IMG/VR virus record: IMGVR_UViG_3300036816_000056
Span: 1-56,300 of that record
Direction: 5' to 3' (one strand)
Origin: a virus
Taxonomy: Duplodnaviria > Caudoviricetes
DNA: 56,300 bases
Shown here: positions 1 to 56,300 of the stretch, one piece after another
Layout of the letters: the number at the start of each line of letters is the position of its first letter
Position numbering within the stretch: the first letter of the stretch is position 1
Made by a program: the position numbers and the translations under genes
The notes under the pieces: model-generated
What the model saw: only the letters and a program-made list of their open reading frames with translations
What the model was told of the DNA's origin: nothing
The model's database searches: none

Positions 1-219
1 GTGGAAATCTCCCGAGGGAGATGTAGGCTTCTTGAACTCATTACTGCTAAGGGCTGGACTCAGACCGAGTATGCTAATCGATCTGGACGGTCTCAGCGGA
101 TGATATCCCATTTCTGTAACGATACCCGTGTAATGCTGCCTGAAGATATGTATACTGCCGTGCTCCTACTAGGGTGTGAATGGGACGATCTATATGAGTT
201 TGACATCAAGCGTACATGA
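1..219 (+). CDS. Small XRE-family HTH protein
   Basis: 72 aa; KGWTQTEYANRSGRSQRMISHF helix-turn-helix; LLGCEWDDLYE tail typical of XRE proteins. Confidence 0.85.
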   Translation: MEISRGRCRLLELITAKGWTQTEYANRSGRSQRMISHFCNDTRVMLPEDMYTAVLLLGCEWDDLYEFDIKRT

Positions 220-396
220 GGCGGTATTACCGCGCTCCCCCGGGTTGTTTAGAACAAATTGTTCTAAACTTCTGGTAAGTAAATAATACCTTTTTCCCAT
301 GACGTGTTGTGTCGCAATGTGTCGAACGTCCCGAAGGTAAAAGTTTACATCTCAGCACTTCACAAAACCACGAATTGACTTTATAAGAAAGATATT
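220..396 (-). ncRNA. Putative SOS-induced small RNA convergent on the XRE gene
   Basis: Downstream of the LexA-boxed promoter; no RBS-preceded ORF found; hairpins at 247-269 and 221-233; ends are inferred. Confidence 0.4.
247..269. repeat. 23-bp palindrome GTTTAGAACAA-A-TTGTTCTAAAC (operator or RNA hairpin)
   Basis: Perfect 11-bp arms, just downstream of the XRE gene. Confidence 0.6.
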
Positions 397-402
397 CCTA
401 AC

Positions 403-431
403 ATTATAACAAGAACGTACGTTCTTGTACA
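403..431 (-). promoter_or_regulatory. SigA-type promoter with a LexA (SOS) box in the spacer
   Basis: Minus strand reads TGTACA-17-TATAAT with an extended TG; palindromic AGAACGTACGTTCT (412-425) fits GAAC-N4-GTTC. Confidence 0.8.
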
Positions 432-525
432 GATCAAAAACATTGTCGAATACAAGCACAGTATAATATGAATCCAGCCAGATCAGCGTCGATAATTCGG
501 ATGTTTTTAGGTTGTTTCTGGTCAT

Positions 526-558
526 AAAAAAACCGCCAAGTACTTTACCTGACGGATT
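526..558 (-). terminator. Intrinsic terminator of the YolD-like operon
   Basis: Imperfect stem followed by a T-run on the minus strand, after the stop at 564. Confidence 0.55.
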
Positions 559-563
559 TAATC

Positions 564-899
564 TCATATAGAAGCTGCAGTAATCTCTTCAATCCTGATC
601 CAGCTGTAATCCTCTTCGCCTCTGACAAGCTTGATTCTTCTGCATGGCTTATCAATAGCTGTGACAACGCCCCGCAACTCCTCGTCATCAAACGGATTAA
701 ATACAGTCAGCGTGATAGACCTGCATTCCTGATACGATTCAAAAATCGCCCGCTCTATAAGCTGTATTTCCTGATCGTCTAGGACAGGCTTTCCTCGTTT
801 CTCCTGCTTATCCATCTCATTAAGGTAAGCCTGCCGATGTTCAGGAAGGATTATACGAGATCCTTCAATGATCCCGTTACCTGTCAATTTGCTTGCCAT
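564..899 (-). CDS. YolD-like protein
   Basis: SRIILPEHR...KPVLDDQEIQLIE...LRGVVTAID pattern; ATG at 899 with AAGGAGG RBS. Confidence 0.85.
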   Translation of the reverse strand: MASKLTGNGIIEGSRIILPEHRQAYLNEMDKQEKRGKPVLDDQEIQLIERAIFESYQECRSITLTVFNPFDDEELRGVVTAIDKPCRRIKLVRGEEDYSWIRIEEITAASI

Positions 900-912
900 A
901 ATAGATGCCTCC

Positions 913-1206
913 TTAATATTGGGTCCAATAATCCGTGTTGTTGGGGTTAGCCGGTGCTGGTCTATGATCAACCTTAGGACGTTCACCCTCACGCTCCCAA
1001 CCTTCCAAAATGATTATGTTTGACGTATCCATCTTGTCATCCCAATGTATGTACTCGGCGGCAATGAGGGCGTCCAAAGCAGCCATGACATCTGGCTTAT
1101 GCTTCCCTGTTTTAACCGTTAGCTCGTGAATTGTGGGAAACCTACGTCGTCCACCTTTGTAGTTGTACAAGATCCTCAGTACCTTGCGTTGAAAATCCGT
1201 CAACAT
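913..1206 (-). CDS. Small winged-HTH protein resembling the LexA N-terminal domain
   Basis: MLTDFQRKVLRIL...FPTIHEL resembles LexA LT.RQ...PPS.RE; no peptidase domain; GGGGG RBS. Confidence 0.6.
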   Translation of the reverse strand: MLTDFQRKVLRILYNYKGGRRRFPTIHELTVKTGKHKPDVMAALDALIAAEYIHWDDKMDTSNIIILEGWEREGERPKVDHRPAPANPNNTDYWTQY

Positions 1207-1217
1207 TTTAAGTCCCC

Positions 1218-1412
1218 CTATGCTGTCGTTCTTATTGGACGGCATGCCAGTAAACGGGATTCCCTAAACGTACGTGGCTTTCCCGACAATAGATCATCAG
1301 CTTTAATCATCCCCGACCGTATGCTCTTGACCTGGATACGTCGTTTGGTGATCTTTCCACTTTGATCCTCATAGATAATTTCAACCAACCTACCCAAGTA
1401 TTTCACCGGCAT
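1218..1412 (-). CDS. Stand-alone mini WYL/SH3-like protein
   Basis: VEIIYEDQSGKITKRRI...PRTFRESRL matches the WYL pattern; GGAGG RBS. Confidence 0.65.
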   Translation of the reverse strand: MPVKYLGRLVEIIYEDQSGKITKRRIQVKSIRSGMIKADDLLSGKPRTFRESRLLACRPIRTTA

Positions 1413-1432
1413 GTTCTTCCCTCCAATCACAC

Positions 1433-1483
1433 AGAACGTTTGTTTGTATTTTTATTATATGCGAATGTATGTTCGTTATTCAA
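1433..1483 (-). promoter_or_regulatory. SigA promoter with two LexA boxes
   Basis: TTGAAT-18-TATAAT; CGAACATACATTCG (1462-1475) in the spacer and AGAACGTTTGTTTG (1433-1446) downstream. Confidence 0.75.
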
Positions 1484-1486
1484 CAG

Positions 1487-1521
1487 AAAAAAATACCCAG
1501 TCCGAAGACTGGGCATTTTCT
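1487..1521. terminator. Terminator after the toxin-immunity pair
   Basis: cccagtc-cgaa-gactggg stem flanked by A and T runs. Confidence 0.75.
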
Positions 1522-1547
1522 TGTTTTCTTTAACTGATACAGTCCAA

Positions 1548-1799
1548 TTAGAATACAGCCGTGATAGTTAACTCATCATTTTTAAATAGCTCTAAAAATG
1601 TTTTCCCGTTAAGTTTGCTCTCCTTAATCATTTCTTCATAAGTTGTAAAGATTGGACCTTGCGTTTTGTTTTCACATACAAAAGCAAAGCCATCTTTATG
1701 AGAAAGGAATGCATACTGTTTGTTATCAAAGACAAATTCTATTTCTCTATGCTCCCAAATAAACTGAAGAATTTCTTCGTAAGTAAACTTTTCACTCAT
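1548..1799 (-). CDS. Putative immunity protein
   Basis: 83 aa, acidic (REIEFVF...NGKTFLE); starts 11 nt after the toxin stop. Confidence 0.65.
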   Translation of the reverse strand: MSEKFTYEEILQFIWEHREIEFVFDNKQYAFLSHKDGFAFVCENKTQGPIFTTYEEMIKESKLNGKTFLELFKNDELTITAVF

Positions 1800-1810
1800 A
1801 TCATCACCAC

Positions 1811-2485
1811 CTAGAATCTTTGACCATTGATCCATTTATGTCTATGCGGAAACGTATGTGATCCATCCGCATTTGAATGGTCGTAGTCGATATCTTCGTC
1901 TGCATTACCATTTTTATCATAGTATCTACGTTGTTTCAACCCCTTCGAATCGTACAGATCTTCGGTAGAACGTGGTTTGCCGGTTCTTTCAAGAGTATTT
2001 TTATATGGTGGGCGTCTATCCGTATGTGTACCTGCTTTAGTACCATTTTTCTTAGCGTCCTGATAAGCCTTTTCTGCTGCAATTTCTGCTTCGGCTGCAT
2101 CCTTTTCCGCAAAATAAGCTTTAACTTTATTATATATCGTTGAACCCGCGTAGTATGTAACACCTCCTACAACAATAACTCCAGTAGCTAGCAACGCGAC
2201 TTCACCAACTCCTGGTATGAAATAAACACCGGCTGCCAATCCAATATTTGATACCGCTAATTGGTCGGCTGGTAATTGACCTCCAGATAGATCATCAACA
2301 GGAACTACATAGAAATCTTGATATGCATCTGTTGTTGCTGTTTCCTGCTCGGAATTTGTGTCCGCTATAACTGATTGTTCTACTTTAATACTTTCATCTG
2401 ACGCATCAGCAAAAACTTGAACACCTGCTACACCTGCAAATAATGATAATGATAGCATTGCACCCATAAACTTTCTTAAAACCAT
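1811..2485 (-). CDS. Secreted polymorphic toxin with a C-terminal predicted nuclease domain (Ntox24-like)
   Basis: Signal peptide (VFA-D); hydrophobic Gly-rich segment GVYFIPGVGEVALLATG; C-terminal RRYYD..G...DIDY.H...PHRHKW. Confidence 0.65.
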   Translation of the reverse strand: MVLRKFMGAMLSLSLFAGVAGVQVFADASDESIKVEQSVIADTNSEQETATTDAYQDFYVVPVDDLSGGQLPADQLAVSNIGLAAGVYFIPGVGEVALLATGVIVVGGVTYYAGSTIYNKVKAYFAEKDAAEAEIAAEKAYQDAKKNGTKAGTHTDRRPPYKNTLERTGKPRSTEDLYDSKGLKQRRYYDKNGNADEDIDYDHSNADGSHTFPHRHKWINGQRF

Positions 2486-2753
2486 TCTCTCATCTCCTAT
2501 TTTTTTAAAATTGAAGTGTAATCTTACCATATTAATATTAGTTAAAACATAAACAATATGTCACAAATAATATAATAAAAAAATACATAATGGCGTATTA
2601 TTAATTTATCTATAATTCAAAAGTAGTAATTATTCGACATTTTTTTTATTTTATAGTTTAATAAACACAAATATTTTCAATAGAATATTTTATCCCATAA
2701 CTTACCGCCTCAATCCTTTATGGCAAACGATATAATTGGGTTGAGGTGTTTTT

Positions 2754-3611
2754 ATGTTTATCAGTCCAATGTTACTCGCAACAGCTCCGGGTCCATTTAG
2801 TCACTCGAATTTTATATATGAACCTAAAGTTGATGGGCACCGGTTGATATATTCGCAACAGTCCGGCAATGTCCGGTTATACACACGTCATAACAATGAT
2901 TGCACCCGTCAGTACCCTGAATTGCTTCTGCCTTTTGATGATGATATTATCCTGGACGGCGAGGTGGCATGCACTGATCCCGAAACCGGACTGAATGACT
3001 TCGAGGCTGTGATGAGCCGATTTAGCACACGTCAGCACTCTAAGGTTCAGCAGCTCATCAAGAAGCTGCCTGCAACGTTTGCCATATTTGATATTCTTTT
3101 TTACCAAGGCCGGGATCTACGTAAGCTACCTCTTATGGAACGCAAGATGATCCTACACAGTTTATCTCTTCCTTCCTCTAACTTTGGAGTTGTGCCCCAT
3201 ATAGAAGGCGCTGGAGAGGATCTATTCGCTCAGATTGAAGCCATGGGTATGGAAGGTGTAGTTGGCAAACGCAAGGACAGCCAGTACGTTAGCAGACGGT
3301 CCAGGGACTGGCAAAAGGTCATTAACTGGTCTTATGCTGATGTTTATATCACTGGGTATCGAAAAACTGAATTCGGATGGCTTGCTGCTGTGCCCGATCT
3401 GTCCGGCAGGCTGCGACCAGCAGGAATAATTGAGCATGGCCCAAATCAAAAGCATAAGCAGGCATTTCGCGGTGTATGCCAGCAGCTCGTAACAGGCCAG
3501 GATAAGGATTATGTGTACCTGGAACCGAAGATACAAGCCAGGGTCAAGATGCGGAACTGGACAAAGTCCGGCTTGCTACGTATACCCGTGTTTGATCAAT
3601 TTATTGTGTGA
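2754..3611 (+). CDS. ATP-dependent DNA ligase (LigD/SPbeta LigB-like)
   Basis: EPKVDGHR motif I, ILDGE, FDIL, EGVVGKR, SRDWQK. Confidence 0.92.
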   Translation: MFISPMLLATAPGPFSHSNFIYEPKVDGHRLIYSQQSGNVRLYTRHNNDCTRQYPELLLPFDDDIILDGEVACTDPETGLNDFEAVMSRFSTRQHSKVQQLIKKLPATFAIFDILFYQGRDLRKLPLMERKMILHSLSLPSSNFGVVPHIEGAGEDLFAQIEAMGMEGVVGKRKDSQYVSRRSRDWQKVINWSYADVYITGYRKTEFGWLAAVPDLSGRLRPAGIIEHGPNQKHKQAFRGVCQQLVTGQDKDYVYLEPKIQARVKMRNWTKSGLLRIPVFDQFIV

Positions 3612-3647
3612 TTATATATTGTAAAGACAATACAGGAGGTGCTTTGT

Positions 3648-4319
3648 ATGTGTGGTAGATTTACGATCACTGACCCCATAGACGCTATAATGGACAGGTA
3701 CTATGCATCTATTGCAGACGGATTTGAGTATCGCCCCAACTATAATGCTGCACCTATGCAGTACATCCCTACCATTATAGGGAGCAAAGACGGCAATAGA
3801 CTGGGCTCGCTCAGATGGGGACTGGTACCAGTTTGGGCCAAAGATGACAAGATCGGCAACAAGATGATTAACGCTCGGGCTGAGACGTTAGCCGAAAAGC
3901 CGGCCTTCAAACGTCTGATCAACTCCAAGCGCTGCATCATCCCAACAAACGGATTTTATGAGTGGCGTAAGGAAGGATCGAGTAAACAACCTATGCGAAT
4001 TCTGATGAAGAACGATAGCATCTTTTCTTTGGCTGGGCTGTACGATACCTGGACAGATCCAGACGGCAATAAACTGAGTACGTGCACCATTATTACAACC
4101 GAACCAAATAGCCTTATGGAAGACATTCATAATCGCATGCCTGTTATTCTGCACCCCGAGGATGAGGCGGAATGGCTCGGAAGAGATAGTGAAGGTATTC
4201 AGTCTCTTCTTGGTCTGCTTAAGCCATATCAAGCGTCTAAGATGAGAGCATATGAGGTACCAAAGGAAGTTGGTAATGTGCGTAATAATAATAAAGAATT
4301 ATTAAAAGAAATAGGTTAA
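3648..4319 (+). CDS. SRAP family abasic-site protein (YoqW/YedK/HMCES-like)
   Basis: N-terminal MCGRF, INARAET, GFYEW, HNRMPVIL. Confidence 0.95.
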   Translation: MCGRFTITDPIDAIMDRYYASIADGFEYRPNYNAAPMQYIPTIIGSKDGNRLGSLRWGLVPVWAKDDKIGNKMINARAETLAEKPAFKRLINSKRCIIPTNGFYEWRKEGSSKQPMRILMKNDSIFSLAGLYDTWTDPDGNKLSTCTIITTEPNSLMEDIHNRMPVILHPEDEAEWLGRDSEGIQSLLGLLKPYQASKMRAYEVPKEVGNVRNNNKELLKEIG

Positions 4320-4364
4320 AGAGTTATTAGCTTTATCGACTTATAAGGTCGGTAGAGCTTTTTA
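4320..4364 (+). terminator. Terminator after ligase-SRAP
   Basis: agctttatcgac...gtcggtagagct followed by a T-run. Confidence 0.7.
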
Positions 4365-4467
4365 TTACTTCTAACACTTAATTGAATATATAGTTATTAT
4401 TGTTTAGACCATCCTTGTTAAATTTTGTATTATTAAATTCGAATAAAAATTAGGAGGACAAGTTTAA

Positions 4468-5265
4468 ATGAGAAGAAAGATTAATTTATTTTTAATTCTA
4501 ACACTAATTGTATCAGTATTTATCCCCTTATCATCTGTGAGTGCCTATACGGGTGGGTATGCTAATGGAAAAGATTCCATAATTATGATCCCCGATAACT
4601 ACTTCATTACAAAACCGCATGATTCGAAAGTTGTTACGACATTAATCACTGATAACAACGAAACAACAGGAACCTTACTTCCTAAAAGTAAAATGTTGAT
4701 GATTGATTTAGGAACAGATAGAACAATCGATTCTTTTAAAATAAATAGTGATTTAAAAAGTATGAGAATTAGTTTTCAGGATCGATCTGTTGGTTACTTG
4801 CATGAGTTTACCCTTAATGGTGGTAGTGGGGCCCTCGAACCAATCCCAAACGGTAAAGTAATAAGTAAAGTAAGATACATCACTTTGTACACCATGTCTG
4901 GAGAAGATATCAACATAAATGAACTCGACTTTTTTTATAGTAAAGATCCAGATTCTGTACCCGATCCTACAAATCCTACAGACCCAACGAATCCTACAGA
5001 CCCAACAGACCCAATTGAACCTACAGCAAATCATGCAATTCTAGTTGTAACAATGACAACTGGGCTAGAAAAAGAATATGATCTTCCAATTAGTGATGTA
5101 AATGCATTCCTCAACTGGTACGATGCTCGTGATGCAGGAACTGGACCAGCTAAATTCGCCATAAACAAATACAGCAACAACAAAGGTCCATTCAGTAAGC
5201 GTACAGATTACGTGATTTTCGATAAGATTTTAACGTTTGAAGTAAGTGAATATACGACCAACTAA
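4468..5265 (+). CDS. Secreted protein: discoidin/F5-8-like domain, PT(D/N) linker, C-terminal domain of unknown function
   Basis: Signal peptide; LITDNNETT...IDLG...I.ELDFF pattern; Pro/Thr linker. Confidence 0.6.
   Translation: MRRKINLFLILTLIVSVFIPLSSVSAYTGGYANGKDSIIMIPDNYFITKPHDSKVVTTLITDNNETTGTLLPKSKMLMIDLGTDRTIDSFKINSDLKSMRISFQDRSVGYLHEFTLNGGSGALEPIPNGKVISKVRYITLYTMSGEDININELDFFYSKDPDSVPDPTNPTDPTNPTDPTDPIEPTANHAILVVTMTTGLEKEYDLPISDVNAFLNWYDARDAGTGPAKFAINKYSNNKGPFSKRTDYVIFDKILTFEVSEYTTN
4961..5025 (+). repeat. 9-bp period repeat encoding the PT(D/N) linker
   Basis: gatcctaca/aatcctaca/gacccaacg/aatcctaca/gacccaaca. Confidence 0.8.
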
Positions 5266-46764: not shown

Positions 46765-46867
46765 TATTCGTTATCGTATTTCGTATATTTTGTTCCTGAT
46801 GTAATCATATACGATATCGAATATTCAGTTAATCCATCTTGCTAATAAATATTCGTTATCGTATAAT
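46765..46867. promoter_or_regulatory. Divergent promoter region with three TATTCGWTATCGTAT operators
   Basis: Copies at 46765-46779, 46809-46823 (inverted) and 46850-46864; TTGCTA-17-TATAAT at 46839-46867. Confidence 0.8.
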
Positions 46868-46879
46868 CCCTTTGAAAGG

Positions 46880-47101
46880 GTGACTACTATGATTAATGTG
46901 AAACCAAATTTAATGCCTCTTTTAAAAGATAAGGGGATTACTCAACAACAATTATCAGAAATGACCGGCATTCCTCAGGGTACGTTAAGTCGATTTGATA
47001 GAAATACCCGTCATGAATCTACTCACTTGTTTACTATCGCAAGAGCATTGGGTATAGGTGTAGAAGATTTGTTTGTAGTGCAGGAGCAAGAGGAAAAGTA
47101 A
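46880..47101 (+). CDS. Second XRE-family HTH repressor
   Basis: KGITQQQLSEMTGIPQGTLSRF...IARALGIGVEDLF. Confidence 0.9.
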   Translation: MTTMINVKPNLMPLLKDKGITQQQLSEMTGIPQGTLSRFDRNTRHESTHLFTIARALGIGVEDLFVVQEQEEK

Positions 47102-53917: not shown

Positions 53918-54067
53918 TATCTCCGTTTTAGGTTATAGTAAAACTCATTAATCTCCGTTTTAGGTTATAAAACTATATATTTACTCTTTGATCCTCTCTT
54001 AAGCTTGACATATCTCCTCTTTTTGTTTTATTATAACCGTATTGGGTTATATCCTTTTTAGGTTATA
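53918..54067. promoter_or_regulatory. Lysis-lysogeny switch with operators of consensus TATAACC-N6-GGTTATA
   Basis: Copies at 53918-53937, 53950-53969, 54032-54051 and 54048-54067, degenerate at 54011-54030; TTGACA at 54005-54010. Confidence 0.85.
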
Positions 54068-54082
54068 CTATCGGAGGTCGTG

Positions 54083-54508
54083 ATGTTAATGCTGTCAGAT
54101 AAAATTAAAGAATTGATGGATTTGAACAATCTAAGCGCCTACAGAGTCTCTAAAGACACAGGTATACCTTATACAACACTCACAAAGATTCTGAACGGAG
54201 CAACAAAAAGTCCTAAGATCGACTTGATTAAGATAATCGCCGATTATTTTAACAAGCCGCTAGACCACTTCACTGAGAGTGAAGACACCACTCACAACGC
54301 TCCAGAATGGGCCACATCTAAAGACTTATCAGATATTAAGAAAATCCTTGAAGAAGACCAGCCTGTCTTGTTTGATGGGGTACCAATTACAGATGAAAAC
54401 CGCCAAAGAGCTATGGACATTCTGACCGGGCTACTTTGGGAAGCCAAAGAGCTAAATAAGAAAACATATGGACGTAAGAAAAAGGCACCCCCTAGAGACG
54501 AAAAGTAG
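54083..54508 (+). CDS. ImmR/CI-like repressor
   Basis: N-terminal XRE HTH; C-terminal LFDG.PI; no autopeptidase; followed by ImmA. Confidence 0.88.
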   Translation: MLMLSDKIKELMDLNNLSAYRVSKDTGIPYTTLTKILNGATKSPKIDLIKIIADYFNKPLDHFTESEDTTHNAPEWATSKDLSDIKKILEEDQPVLFDGVPITDENRQRAMDILTGLLWEAKELNKKTYGRKKKAPPRDEK

Positions 54509-54928
54509 GTGACCGGTTTGGATGACATCATTCGCAAGCTCGTTCGCAGATTCAAGACCAACGATCCTTTTGTAATAGCTAAAGGACTTAACATAATAAT
54601 TCAACATGCGGAATTCGGACCAGGCACGAGAGGTTTATACTACAGACGGTTGCGCAGGCGATTCATTGTTATACATAATGGCTTGCCTGAAGAGTGGCAA
54701 CGCGTGGTGTGTGCTCATGAACTTGGACACGATCGACTTCATTCGGGTTTAAGCCAATTCTGGATTGATGAGCATACCTTCTTCAATACAGGAAAATTCG
54801 AACGACAAGCAAATATTTTTGCGGTAAAACTGTTAACCCAACTCACTGAACGCGATCCAGGAGAAACAGAAGAATCATACCTCTTGCGATGCGGCGTACC
54901 GAAACAACTTCATAACTTAGAAATGTAA
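54509..54928 (+). CDS. immA: ImmA/IrrE metallopeptidase (antirepressor)
   Basis: TNDPF...CAHELGH..LH...ERQANIFA. Confidence 0.92.
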   Translation: MTGLDDIIRKLVRRFKTNDPFVIAKGLNIIIQHAEFGPGTRGLYYRRLRRRFIVIHNGLPEEWQRVVCAHELGHDRLHSGLSQFWIDEHTFFNTGKFERQANIFAVKLLTQLTERDPGETEESYLLRCGVPKQLHNLEM

Positions 54929-54972: not shown

Positions 54973-54986
54973 AGAACTGGTGTTCG
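54973..54986 (+). promoter_or_regulatory. LexA box upstream of the integrase RBS
   Basis: AGAACTGGTGTTCG fits GAAC-N4-GTTC. Confidence 0.65.
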
Positions 54987-55001: not shown

Positions 55002-56300
55002 GTGGCAAAAGGAAGCATAGAAAAAAGAGGGAAAAATACATGGCGTCTTACGGTTGATTTAGGTTTAAACGGGGACGGCAGTCGCAATCGTCCCCGTAAA
55101 GCAATTACGATTGAGGATGAAGTCTTGTTAAGAACAAAGAAACGATTGAATGATCACCTTAACAATGAGTTGGCTAAATTTAAAATCGAAGTAGAAGCAG
55201 GAGAATATATCGCACCAGAAAAAACAACATTCATTAACTTCATTGAAGAATGGCGAGAAAAGTATGCTAGTAACCCCAACAACCTTTCTCAAACTACCTT
55301 AACTGTATACGAGAATGTGATTAAATCTCGATTAATACCTGTATTTAAGAATGATCGCATAGACCAACTTACCACTTTAAAACTCGTGTCTTTTTTTCAT
55401 GATCTAGAAAAACCAGGAACAAGGAAGCCTTCAAGTAGTAAGAAACCCCTAAGTGAAAAGCAAATGGCCAAACAACTTGAACCACTTGATGCCAGTACAC
55501 TAGCACATATCCATCGCGTACTAAAGAATATATTTTCCCGAGCAGTTGAGTGGAAAATAATAAAAGAAAATCCAATGGACGGAGTCAAAAAACCAACCTC
55601 AAAAAACGCAAAAGAGAAATTAATTGAACAACGGGACAATCCCCAATATTTCGATGAAATGGAGGCCCAAGAAGTTGTTGATGCTTTGTATAAAGAAACA
55701 AGAAAATGGCGGCTTTTAATATTAGGTTCAATGTTAGGAGGATTCAGACGTGGTGAACTTAACGGATTAGAATGGCCAGAAGTTCTATTTGACAATAACA
55801 CGATAAGAATTGAAAACAATATACCTCTCACTTTGAAGGGGCAAGCTGTAGAAAAAGGGCCGAAGTCTTTAGCTTCATTTAGAGATGTAGACATGCCAGA
55901 TTGGTATATGAATGAGTTGAAAATTTATAAACAGGAGTGGTTAAAAGAAAAAGAGTTTTTAGAAGACAAGTGGCTTGGTGCTGATCGGCAATTTGTTTTC
56001 CATAATGGCACAGGAACCCCCTACTATTACCAGCATCCTTCAAAATGGTGGAAGCGATTTTGTGATAGGCATAGTCTGCGGTACATTAAATTCCATGGCT
56101 TACGACACAGTGCCGGAACCTTACTACTTGAAGACGAGGATGAAGCTAATTATGATTCGATACTTATCGCTATTCAGAGGCGCTTAGGTCATGCCAGACT
56201 TTCCACAACATCAGACACGTATGTGCACGTCACTAAAAAGGTAAAGACTCGTGTAGCAGGAAAGTTAAATAAATTTGATCCTTCAGGTTTACGCAAATGA
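55002..56300 (+). CDS. int: Tyrosine integrase (ICEBs1-like)
   Basis: GSIEKRG arm domain; GFRRGEL, FHGLRHS, RLGHA...DTYVH. Confidence 0.95.
   Translation: MAKGSIEKRGKNTWRLTVDLGLNGDGSRNRPRKAITIEDEVLLRTKKRLNDHLNNELAKFKIEVEAGEYIAPEKTTFINFIEEWREKYASNPNNLSQTTLTVYENVIKSRLIPVFKNDRIDQLTTLKLVSFFHDLEKPGTRKPSSSKKPLSEKQMAKQLEPLDASTLAHIHRVLKNIFSRAVEWKIIKENPMDGVKKPTSKNAKEKLIEQRDNPQYFDEMEAQEVVDALYKETRKWRLLILGSMLGGFRRGELNGLEWPEVLFDNNTIRIENNIPLTLKGQAVEKGPKSLASFRDVDMPDWYMNELKIYKQEWLKEKEFLEDKWLGADRQFVFHNGTGTPYYYQHPSKWWKRFCDRHSLRYIKFHGLRHSAGTLLLEDEDEANYDSILIAIQRRLGHARLSTTSDTYVHVTKKVKTRVAGKLNKFDPSGLRK

Follow-up and report, generated by a model that had tools for sequence, protein, structure and literature searches.

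The 56,300-base IMG/VR provirus record IMGVR_UViG_3300036816_000056, called the window here, opens with xre, a plus-strand gene (positions 1–219) for a 72-aa regulator made up of a helix-turn-helix (HTH) domain only. Just beyond it we found a conserved non-coding control cassette of about 250 bp (276–525), which carries a leftward promoter, P_L, pointing at xre. Sequence and comparison across related loci together define this promoter, the LexA-type site within it, the non-coding cassette, three Spo0A-type boxes and the palindromes that accompany the xre genes. The reading that we favour, giving it slightly less than an even chance, is that a non-coding transcript, derepressed in the SOS response and probably gated by Spo0A, collides with or pairs to xre. 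The element would be an SOS-gated convergent transcript of a known kind, and its unexpected feature is the set of predicted Spo0A-type boxes, which an initial annotation of the same DNA had missed along with the XRE-specific palindrome and a rightward promoter lying face to face with P_L.

The cassette recurs behind small xre genes in Paenibacillus

Searches with the 72-aa XRE protein found relatives on genome contigs of Paenibacillus (10 loci) and Cohnella (1 locus) and in 2 IMG/VR proviruses, and BLAST and pattern searches with the stretch downstream of xre matched 14 of 93 host-genus genomes, 10 of them over at least 70 nt, as well as 3 further IMG/VR contigs. Seven of the 401 genomes in a family-wide sample were matched; the five with more than 70 nt (G001, G002, G031, G053 and G064) had already come up in the genus search, and no copy of the cassette outside the host genus was found in this sample. 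The cassette pattern had 0 matches in metagenome contigs, the DNA of window positions 1–1500 had none among 50,697 phage records, and a tblastn search of 50,697 phage records with the XRE protein returned a single Psychrobacillus phage record (37% identity).

Dropping one identical copy left 17 distinct Paenibacillus prophage loci, the window included, of which 16–17 entered the alignments. In all 17 the cassette begins about 50–114 nt past the stop codon of a small XRE gene, and its nucleotide identity to the window is 66–86%, while the XRE proteins, which are encoded upstream of every cassette copy and fall into several types, go down to 31% (range 31–89%). Conservation takes the form of primary-sequence islands with a sharp left end at 276–279 and a right reach to about 525, a pattern that points to protein-binding sites. 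Besides the LexA half-sites and promoter hexamers described below, the most conserved islands include the Spo0A-type boxes at 310–326 and 444–450. The stretch AAGGTAAAAGTTTACA (334–349), which holds the inverted repeat GTAAA-NN-TTTAC, is invariant in its alignment columns, and its AAGGTA is complementary to TACCTT at 288–293.

Every copy of the cassette has xre as its left-hand neighbour, and the right-hand neighbour is not fixed. In 12 of the 17 loci, the window among them, the cassette is followed on the right by a convergent terminator and a YolD 3′ end; L007, L025, L044 and L045 have a 55-aa gene with a ribosome site there, followed in L007 by an endolysin, and L024 has unrelated sequence. 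Left of xre, the relatives carry a small divergent gene of varying kind and then host genes within 0.4–0.8 kb. A small minus-strand open reading frame (ORF) starts 20–150 bp left of xre in 13 of 13 relatives examined, the last three loci lying outside this count, and its products include a 50-aa family, 75–84-aa proteins, an HTH_3 protein (in L021 alone) and an S24-only protein. Members of the 50-aa family (L005, 3769–3918; L008, 5768–5917; also L006, L022 and L032) differ mostly by conservative substitutions, have zero Pfam or PHROG matches, and are encoded by an ORF that contains a plus-strand terminator-like hairpin. In L026 the divergent neighbour of the HTH-only XRE is a 91-aa S24-only peptidase, equivalent to the C-terminal part of LexA or CI (E 6e-10). 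A stretch resembling a tRNA 3′ end, about 450 bp upstream of the L005 XRE gene, was called by neither ARAGORN nor Rfam and is not relied on.

A LexA-type operator fills the spacer of a leftward promoter

P_L (431–403, minus strand) is a predicted sigma-A promoter with a TGTACA −35 hexamer (431–426), a 17-bp spacer, a TG at 411–410 and a TATAAT −10 hexamer (408–403). A promoter scan gave it 10 of 12 matches in addition to the TG before the −10, and transcription would start near 396. Its spacer is filled by the perfect, gapless palindrome ACAAGAACGTACGTTCTTGT (409–428, arms 409–418 and 419–428), a LexA-type operator whose core GAAC-N4-GTTC spans 413–424 (GAACGTACGTTC). The initial annotation had described this palindrome over the spacer of a leftward TGTACA-17-TATAAT promoter with TG, just as we find it, and had named it a LexA box.

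Within the window by itself, chance could account for the core: GAAC-N4-GTTC was found 2 times against 0.83 expected and at least 2 times in 14 of 100 shuffles. We nevertheless consider it real because it is conserved across loci (perfect in 15 of 17, with one mismatch each in L006 and L008) and positioned inside a promoter. The −10 of P_L is TATAAT in 10 of the 17 loci and the −35 is TTAACA or TTCACA in 9; in L007 the promoter reads TTAACA-17-TATAAT (11/12 matches), the best promoter-like match within 1.3 kb. The lexA promoter of host genome G001, taken as a positive control, reads CGAACGGAGGTTCT-A-TGTTATAAT, and the counterpart in P_L reads AGAACGTACGTTCT-TGTTATAAT, the GAAC-N4-GTTC box ending 2 nt before TGTTATAAT in the former and 1 nt before it in the latter. 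The predicted placement of LexA in P_L is thus a copy of that in the host's own lexA promoter, and the earlier assignment of a LexA box within a leftward sigma-A promoter is borne out. The same host genome also holds a 77-aa frame that matches only the N-terminal DNA-binding part of LexA. An apparent trade-off between the extended −10 and the −35, by which loci with a poor −35 carry TGn, was set aside, as the window, L005 and L021 are close relatives and represent at most one event.

Opposite P_L, overlapping it and face to face with it, lies a rightward promoter-like site, TTGACT-18-TAACAT (375–404, plus strand; 9/12 matches). In the window, L007 and L008, scans of the interval from P_L to xre found no intrinsic minus-strand terminator.

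Upstream, P_L is separated from a YolD operon (564–1483, minus strand) comprising a 64-aa gene, a 97-aa winged-HTH gene and YolD (E 2.5e-21). The predicted intrinsic terminator of this operon (555–533, minus strand; CCGTCAGG..CTTGGCGG followed by a run of T, T7) sits between the YolD stop codon (564) and P_L, close to the position of about 526–558 given for it in the initial annotation, and its G-T pairs are compatible with the minus strand only. The operon has its own promoter, TTGAAT-18-TATAAT (1483–1454, minus strand), with LexA-like boxes at 1433–1446 and 1462–1475 in the promoter region, so that two SOS-type leftward promoters stand in tandem about 1 kb apart. The products encoded before YolD (913–1412, minus strand) are a 97-aa winged-helix protein, with weak matches to DnaD_N and HTH_36 and assigned to phrog_3502, and a 64-aa protein assigned to phrog_6785.

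Boxes of the Spo0A type lie on both sides of P_L

On the plus strand, a tandem pair of Spo0A-type boxes, TGTCGCA-ATG-TGTCGAA (310–326, 10-bp period), lies about 70–87 nt downstream of the P_L start, and a third box, TGTCGAA (444–450), lies 12 bp upstream of the −35. The boxes at 320–326 and 444–450 are perfect, and that at 310–316, 3 bp before the second, matches at 6 of 7 positions. By chance the window would hold 0.07 copies of the tandem pattern; it holds one, and each of two host genomes of 7 Mb has no match other than that in its cassette. All 17 loci have two TGTC-started boxes at the 10-bp period, with TGTCGAA at box 2 in 15 and at box 3 in 15; weaker TGTCG pairs follow distant XRE genes without the rest of the cassette.

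TGTCGAA is the 0A-box consensus, and the Spo0A-protected sites of phages phi29 and Nf are described as pairs of boxes 3 bp apart, with the phi29 boxes repressing early promoters and allowing the genome to become trapped in the spore (according to PMC2731898). The candidate boxes of the cassette resemble those of phi29 and Nf in matching the consensus, in forming a 3-bp-spaced pair and in lying beside and downstream of a phage promoter, as far as the sites are described in PMC2731898. They differ in setting: phi29 and Nf are lytic phages with boxes at early and late promoters, whereas here the boxes surround a LexA-boxed promoter at the prophage end of a temperate phage. The abrB region of host genome G001 has TGACGAA-TCT-TGTCGAA upstream of the promoter and TGTCGAA-TAA-TGACAAT just past it; a classic Spo0A target in the genus thus uses this consensus and geometry, and the candidate boxes of the cassette share that tandem layout.

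The predicted transcript has no shared reading frame or fold

The initial annotation had seen no ORF preceded by a ribosome-binding site in the minus-strand interval from about 396 to 220, and our analysis agrees. The ORFs there, a 43-aa frame from a GTG (358–227) and a 36-aa frame from an ATG (300–190), both lack a Shine–Dalgarno sequence. Variable alignment columns are spread evenly over codon positions in the three minus-strand frames (12/14/13, 13/13/11 and 13/11/14), the plus strand likewise has no periodicity, and every minus-strand frame holds stop codons in some loci. No Shine–Dalgarno-preceded ORF common to the 17 loci was found, and by these sequence measures the cassette is non-coding.

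Individual frames were considered and rejected. Of the 17 loci, only 3 have the ATG of the 36-aa frame, whose overlap with xre is 30 nt. A 57-aa frame that starts at ATG 524 runs across the promoter and is missing from L007-type loci. A type I toxin–antitoxin of the tisB/istR type was rejected for want of a shared ORF; a hydrophobic 31-aa TTG frame is found only in L025 and L045, without a Shine–Dalgarno sequence, and a related stretch lies inside a longer frame in L007. L025 and L038 (2 of the 17 loci) have a Shine–Dalgarno-preceded 27-aa antisense ORF with the consensus M..(I/V)NVWLNHTNARGESRPGSMIDQIV that overlaps the 3′ end of xre by 21 nt; it occupies the position of AimX in arbitrium phages and is absent from the window and from the loci with type-A XREs.

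Aligning the interval across related prophages, a check proposed with the initial annotation, revealed neither RNA covariation nor a conserved ORF in the 16–17 loci. RNAalifold found 0 compensatory pairs among the 16 predicted on the minus strand (−6.06 kcal/mol) and the 11 on the plus strand (−6.25 kcal/mol), and the fold of the 126-nt leader was no better than that of shuffles (z-score −0.53). A weak minus-strand stem followed by UUAUUUAC is predicted near 293–276, without covariation, and the scan gave no minus-strand terminator between 403 and 1. Rfam searches gave no credible match in window positions 1–3000, where the two matches at E ≤ 1 were far under the gathering thresholds, and in five related loci none reached that threshold. 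Complementary stretches shared by 220–540 and the rest of the window were at most 12 nt long.

Each XRE type is followed by its own palindrome

The 72-aa XRE protein matches HTH_3 over residues 12–63 (E 0.0012, 19.3 bits), under the Pfam cut-off of 23, and matches phrog_3, annotated as a transcriptional repressor, with E 3e-6; searches against solved structures and NCBIfam gave only weak HipB and MOR-like matches at E ≥ 0.1. The window's xre starts with a GTG at the cut edge of the record, and the genes of relatives have a GGAGG 8 nt upstream and a TGnTATAAT promoter, of the form TTTACC-18-TATAAT or TTCTCA-16-TATAAT, both with TG.

Right after the xre stop codon, 218–246 comprises a GC hairpin (stem 221–225/229–233) and then CTCCCCCGGG; an equivalent hairpin with a CTCC..GGG motif behind it recurs after every XRE type. 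On its sequence the hairpin is not a canonical terminator because it lacks a T-run. It is followed by a perfect 11+11 inverted repeat, GTTTAGAACAA-A-TTGTTCTAAAC (247–269), of which the window holds one good copy and which is a candidate XRE operator. Type-A XREs, that of the window included, share the core AGAACA-N3-TGTTCT, which is kept at 63–69% XRE identity despite unalignable flanks. More distant members have GGAACT-N3-AGTTCC, GAGCT-N3-AGCTC or AGAGCA-N3-TGCTCT, and type B has TGTATGG.T.A.CCATACA. A T-run follows none of these palindromes. An operator fits better than a terminator because the dyad geometry is constant, the centre is variable and the half-sites track the protein type; the palindrome after each xre is thus probably the operator of that XRE, and part of the type-tracking pattern could stem from shared ancestry of the neighbouring DNA. 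Of the hairpins and the convergent 72-aa XRE gene reported in the initial annotation, the hairpin at 221–233, the repeat at 247–269 and the ORF at 1–219 are all present, and only the description of the gene as terminal has to go, the record being cut at gene boundaries.

A further perfect palindrome, of 16 nt (ATCTCCCGAGGGAGAT), lies within the window's xre at positions 7–22, codons 3–7, where it encodes an SRGR motif. The motif is kept in 16 of 17 XRE genes, L024 being different, and six loci in which the DNA was inspected all show the palindrome. It is complementary at 9 of 10 positions to CTCCCCCGGG in the 3′ untranslated stretch of xre (236–245).

Genomic setting of the element

The window is a whole provirus record rated 92% complete, running from the GTG of the 72-aa ORF to the stop codon of a tyrosine integrase (int, 55002–56300; Phage_integrase E 5.9e-16). 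Because the record was cut at gene boundaries, position 1 is not a phage end. Adjoining int are an HTH_3 repressor (54080–54508) and an M78/ImmA-type peptidase (54509–54928), and this ImmR/ImmA pair is the main switch of the phage. The leftward early operon encodes an excisionase-type HTH_17 protein together with ParB-like, replication-O-like, DnaC-like and beta-clamp proteins. In locus L005 a remnant matching residues 391–427 of the window integrase, the 3′ end of int, lies about 490 bp upstream of xre. This remnant fits an int–attP–xre adjacency in the circular phage, and with int at the other end of the record it upholds the earlier proposal that the locus adjoins int in the circle.

Other features of the prophage deserve mention. 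Between the HTH_3 repressor and the early operon (53920–54067) are three copies of a 16–18-nt repeat, (TC)TCCGTTTTAGGTTATA or TCCTTTTTAGGTTATA, which are probably operators of the ImmR-type repressor. A LexA-like box, AGAACTGGTGTTCG (54973–54986), with one mismatch to the 14-mer, stands after the ImmA-type gene and 16 nt before the integrase start at 55002 and suggests an SOS input on int. A second small HTH gene, of 70 aa (46889–47101, plus strand), sits amid minus-strand genes and is preceded by the direct repeat TATTCGTTATCGTAT at 46765–46779 and 46850–46864. Near the YolD operon (2754–4319), an ATP-dependent DNA ligase (E 1e-28) adjoins an SOS-response-associated peptidase (SRAP, E 8e-75), and by its gene content this pair is a predicted DNA-damage-tolerance island at the prophage end.

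Relation to arbitrium and other convergent-transcript systems

The initial annotation had likened the element to an aimX/aimC switch without arbitrium input. Its statement that the phage lacks aimR holds for the nine early and immunity-region ORFs that we scanned, which either matched replication, ParB, HNH, M78 and HTH_17 families or had no match; nothing AimR-like was among the matches. Its view of XRE as AimC-like is not supported. We compared XRE with wp30 and wp29 of phage WBeta, the latter being the convergent HTH gene that we take, by position, to be AimC, and found no similarity, BLASTP giving no alignment to wp29. WBeta has at the AimX position a small ORF with a strong ribosome site, whereas the window has no Shine–Dalgarno-preceded ORF there. 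The description of XRE as pro-lysogeny is likewise not supported, and the phage has its own switch in the ImmR/ImmA pair beside int.

In phage phi106 the aimX transcript, which is convergent on a gene for a short repressor, is under LexA control, being repressed by it, as reported from reporter assays, a non-cleavable LexA and mutation of the site (10.1101/2021.09.20.460909). The phi106-type repressor has since been named AimC, with a divergent partner AimL, and is described as an 80–140-aa protein with an N-terminal HTH and a C-terminal helical oligomerisation domain (10.1101/2025.11.23.689978). The idea of aimX as a non-coding antisense RNA of aimC, on which the initial annotation had drawn, is out of date according to the same 2025 preprint, which presents AimX as a 29-aa antirepressor protein and reports that a start-to-stop aimX mutant loses the response (10.1101/2025.11.23.689978).

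The present element resembles phi106 aimX/aimC in its upstream operon terminator, its LexA site and a predicted transcript convergent on a short HTH gene with a divergent small neighbour; among arbitrium modules, a LexA site in this position is a trait of the phi106 family only. It is unlike arbitrium in having no aimR or aimP by the scan of nine ORFs, in having YolD as the upstream operon, and in placing xre at the far end of the prophage near host DNA instead of before the replication genes. XRE itself, at 72 aa and HTH only, lacks the C-terminal oligomerisation part of AimC, and unlike AimL the divergent gene of the relatives is followed by host genes within the short distance given above and encodes an HTH protein in L021 only. 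On these sequence features, membership in the arbitrium module fails.

The OOP RNA of phage lambda is a terminated transcript of 77 nt. In our element the scan found no terminator, only the weak stem near 293–276, and the predicted RNA would cover the whole of xre; host and sequences are unrelated to those of lambda. The lambda oop–pO region is reported to hold a LexA site (PMC5869508), and OOP, which is antisense to cII, is described as promoting RNase III cleavage of cII mRNA, with a minor role in SOS induction (PMC2327240). The likeness to OOP/cII lies in a leftward transcript, predicted here, that runs against the 3′ end of a gene for a small HTH regulator, and in a LexA site in the promoter region. 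The pR/pL pair of coliphage 186 is reportedly the lysis–lysogeny switch itself, its interfering promoter not being gated by LexA. With that pair, as described in PMC5001618, the element shares face-to-face promoters, the lack of a terminator between them and repressor control of one of the two. No published description of this Paenibacillus element was found in the literature, most matches being judged by brief entries.

Discussion

In the interpretation that we favour, a module at the int-distal end of Paenibacillus prophages would consist of a rightward xre, an XRE-specific palindrome and the conserved non-coding cassette. In a lysogen, host LexA at 409–428 would shut both P_L and the rightward promoter facing it, whose predicted start it would span, one dimer covering the two. 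After DNA damage, cleavage of LexA would let P_L fire, and a transcript with neither a conserved ORF nor a conserved fold, running unterminated, would meet head-on xre, whose constitutive-looking promoter lies about 430 nt away; XRE output would then drop through polymerase collision, sense–antisense pairing or both. In relatives, transcription from P_L would carry on into the small gene that diverges from xre. XRE on 247–269 could act as a roadblock between the two promoters and so give feedback, and Spo0A~P at the three boxes would shut or reshape the output in cells entering sporulation. From placement and conservation we infer that P_L fires, that LexA, Spo0A and XRE bind at the predicted sites, and that xre is the target, silenced by the P_L transcript as the initial annotation had proposed. 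A bolder version, which we regard as unlikely, would make the element a protein-free counterpart of aimX, in which two host master regulators, LexA for DNA damage and Spo0A for the onset of sporulation, are integrated on face-to-face promoters, an allele-specific XRE is set purely by convergent transcription, and the XRE operator serves as the roadblock.

Several observations weigh against the interpretation that we favour. Within the window, 17 LexA-like 14-mers with at most 2 mismatches were found where chance predicts 15.9, and TGTCGAA is not enriched (7 found, 8.7 expected). Among sequencing runs, none of RNA was listed for window positions 1–5000. Of four runs compared, one has a near-identical contig that spans 1–1600, includes about 417 nt to the left of position 1 and may be the source, and another, presumed to be RNA, reaches only 1139–1498 and comes from a relative; none of the four bears on expression of the cassette. 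P_L is degenerate in L008 and L006, and many of the 17 loci are closely related, so that our counts overstate the number of independent events. The strong conservation of the first 120 nt of the transcript is not explained by a role in running into xre; we attribute it to DNA sites, only some of which are identified. In the closest studied analogue, the antisense transcript is reported to have little effect without the small protein (10.1101/2025.11.23.689978). Finally, the rightward promoter is conserved too, facing the 55-aa gene with a ribosome site in 4 of the 17 loci (L007, L025, L044 and L045), and the relevant output might be rightward.

In that alternative, which we consider unlikely, the promoter at 375–404, with LexA just past its −10, would drive a short leader into the right-hand gene; the leader would comprise box 3, a TATAAT-like hexamer at 462–467 and the conserved 488–525 stretch, and in the window it would run antisense to the YolD operon. 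The −35 is TT[GA]ACT in 9 of 16 loci while its spacer varies, the site scores 9 of 12 in L007 as in the window, conservation of the cassette extends rightward to about 525, and the 55-aa ORF comes directly next in the four loci just named. On the other side, the TAACAT-like −10 is weaker than the leftward TATAAT, 12 of the 17 loci have a convergent terminator and a YolD 3′ end where a right-hand gene would be needed, and the constant partner of the cassette is the left-hand xre. Looking leftward instead, P_L could be the SOS promoter of a small protein gene beyond xre, outside the record, with the xre-antisense stretch as a long leader and with an effector that might be an antirepressor-like partner, whether of XRE or of a different repressor. 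The small minus-strand ORF found left of xre in 13 of 13 relatives, the mostly conservative substitutions in the 50-aa family and the lack of a minus-strand terminator between P_L and the left-hand gene in L007 and L008 agree with this, and LexA-controlled antirepressors are a known kind, as the 2025 preprint indicates (10.1101/2025.11.23.689978). Yet the left-hand gene differs among loci while xre and cassette stay constant, the short divergent gap probably provides each left-hand gene with a promoter of its own, and the left-hand gene of the window lies beyond the edge of the record; we therefore hold this explanation to be quite improbable.

The sharp halt of conservation at 276–279 would also suit a discrete trans-acting small RNA of about 110–120 nt ending at the U-rich 286–276, and RNAalifold does close the minus-strand RNA with UACCUU/AAGGUA followed by UUAUUUAC, one helix tolerating nine G-to-A changes only as minus-strand G-U pairs. 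With 0 of its 16 predicted pairs compensatory, a consensus energy of just −6.06 kcal/mol, a z-score of −0.53, no terminator by scan, no complementarity in the prophage beyond 12 nt and no Rfam match, such an RNA is highly improbable. A last alternative takes the cassette as mainly a DNA-level platform or a decaying remnant, its promoter-like hexamers incidental and its TGTCG repeats bound by a phage or host protein other than Spo0A. Conservation in primary-sequence islands is what it would predict, the islands at 276–297, 334–349, 360–368 and 488–525 match no nameable site, and weak TGTCG pairs follow distant XRE genes in the absence of the remaining cassette. Against it, the best-conserved islands are the LexA core, correctly spaced promoter hexamers and consensus 0A boxes; integrase arm sites were rejected as a candidate, the cassette being too far (about 730–975 bp) from the presumed att core, and the neighbouring phage proteins vary. 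We judge this alternative to be distinctly unlikely.

Lambda oop and phi106 aimX are precedents for transcripts under LexA control that are directed at a small phage regulator, and in both the weight of the RNA itself is disputed. The family described here offers a natural case with neither a small ORF nor arbitrium input, in which the effect of convergent transcription alone would be measurable, and its XRE types with their matching palindromes form a ready set of candidate orthogonal repressor–operator pairs. DNA damage, and perhaps sporulation, could set the level of the XRE regulator. If the Spo0A-type boxes are real, a temperate phage would have wired the master regulator of sporulation beside the SOS repressor on one promoter, a kind of Spo0A wiring that in phages has so far been documented mainly for the lytic phi29 group. 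Should the protein-free counterpart of aimX prove true, the response of the prophage to DNA damage would differ between growing and sporulating cells. The boxes, if real, bear on how the prophages of spore-formers avoid induction in cells that are committing to a spore.

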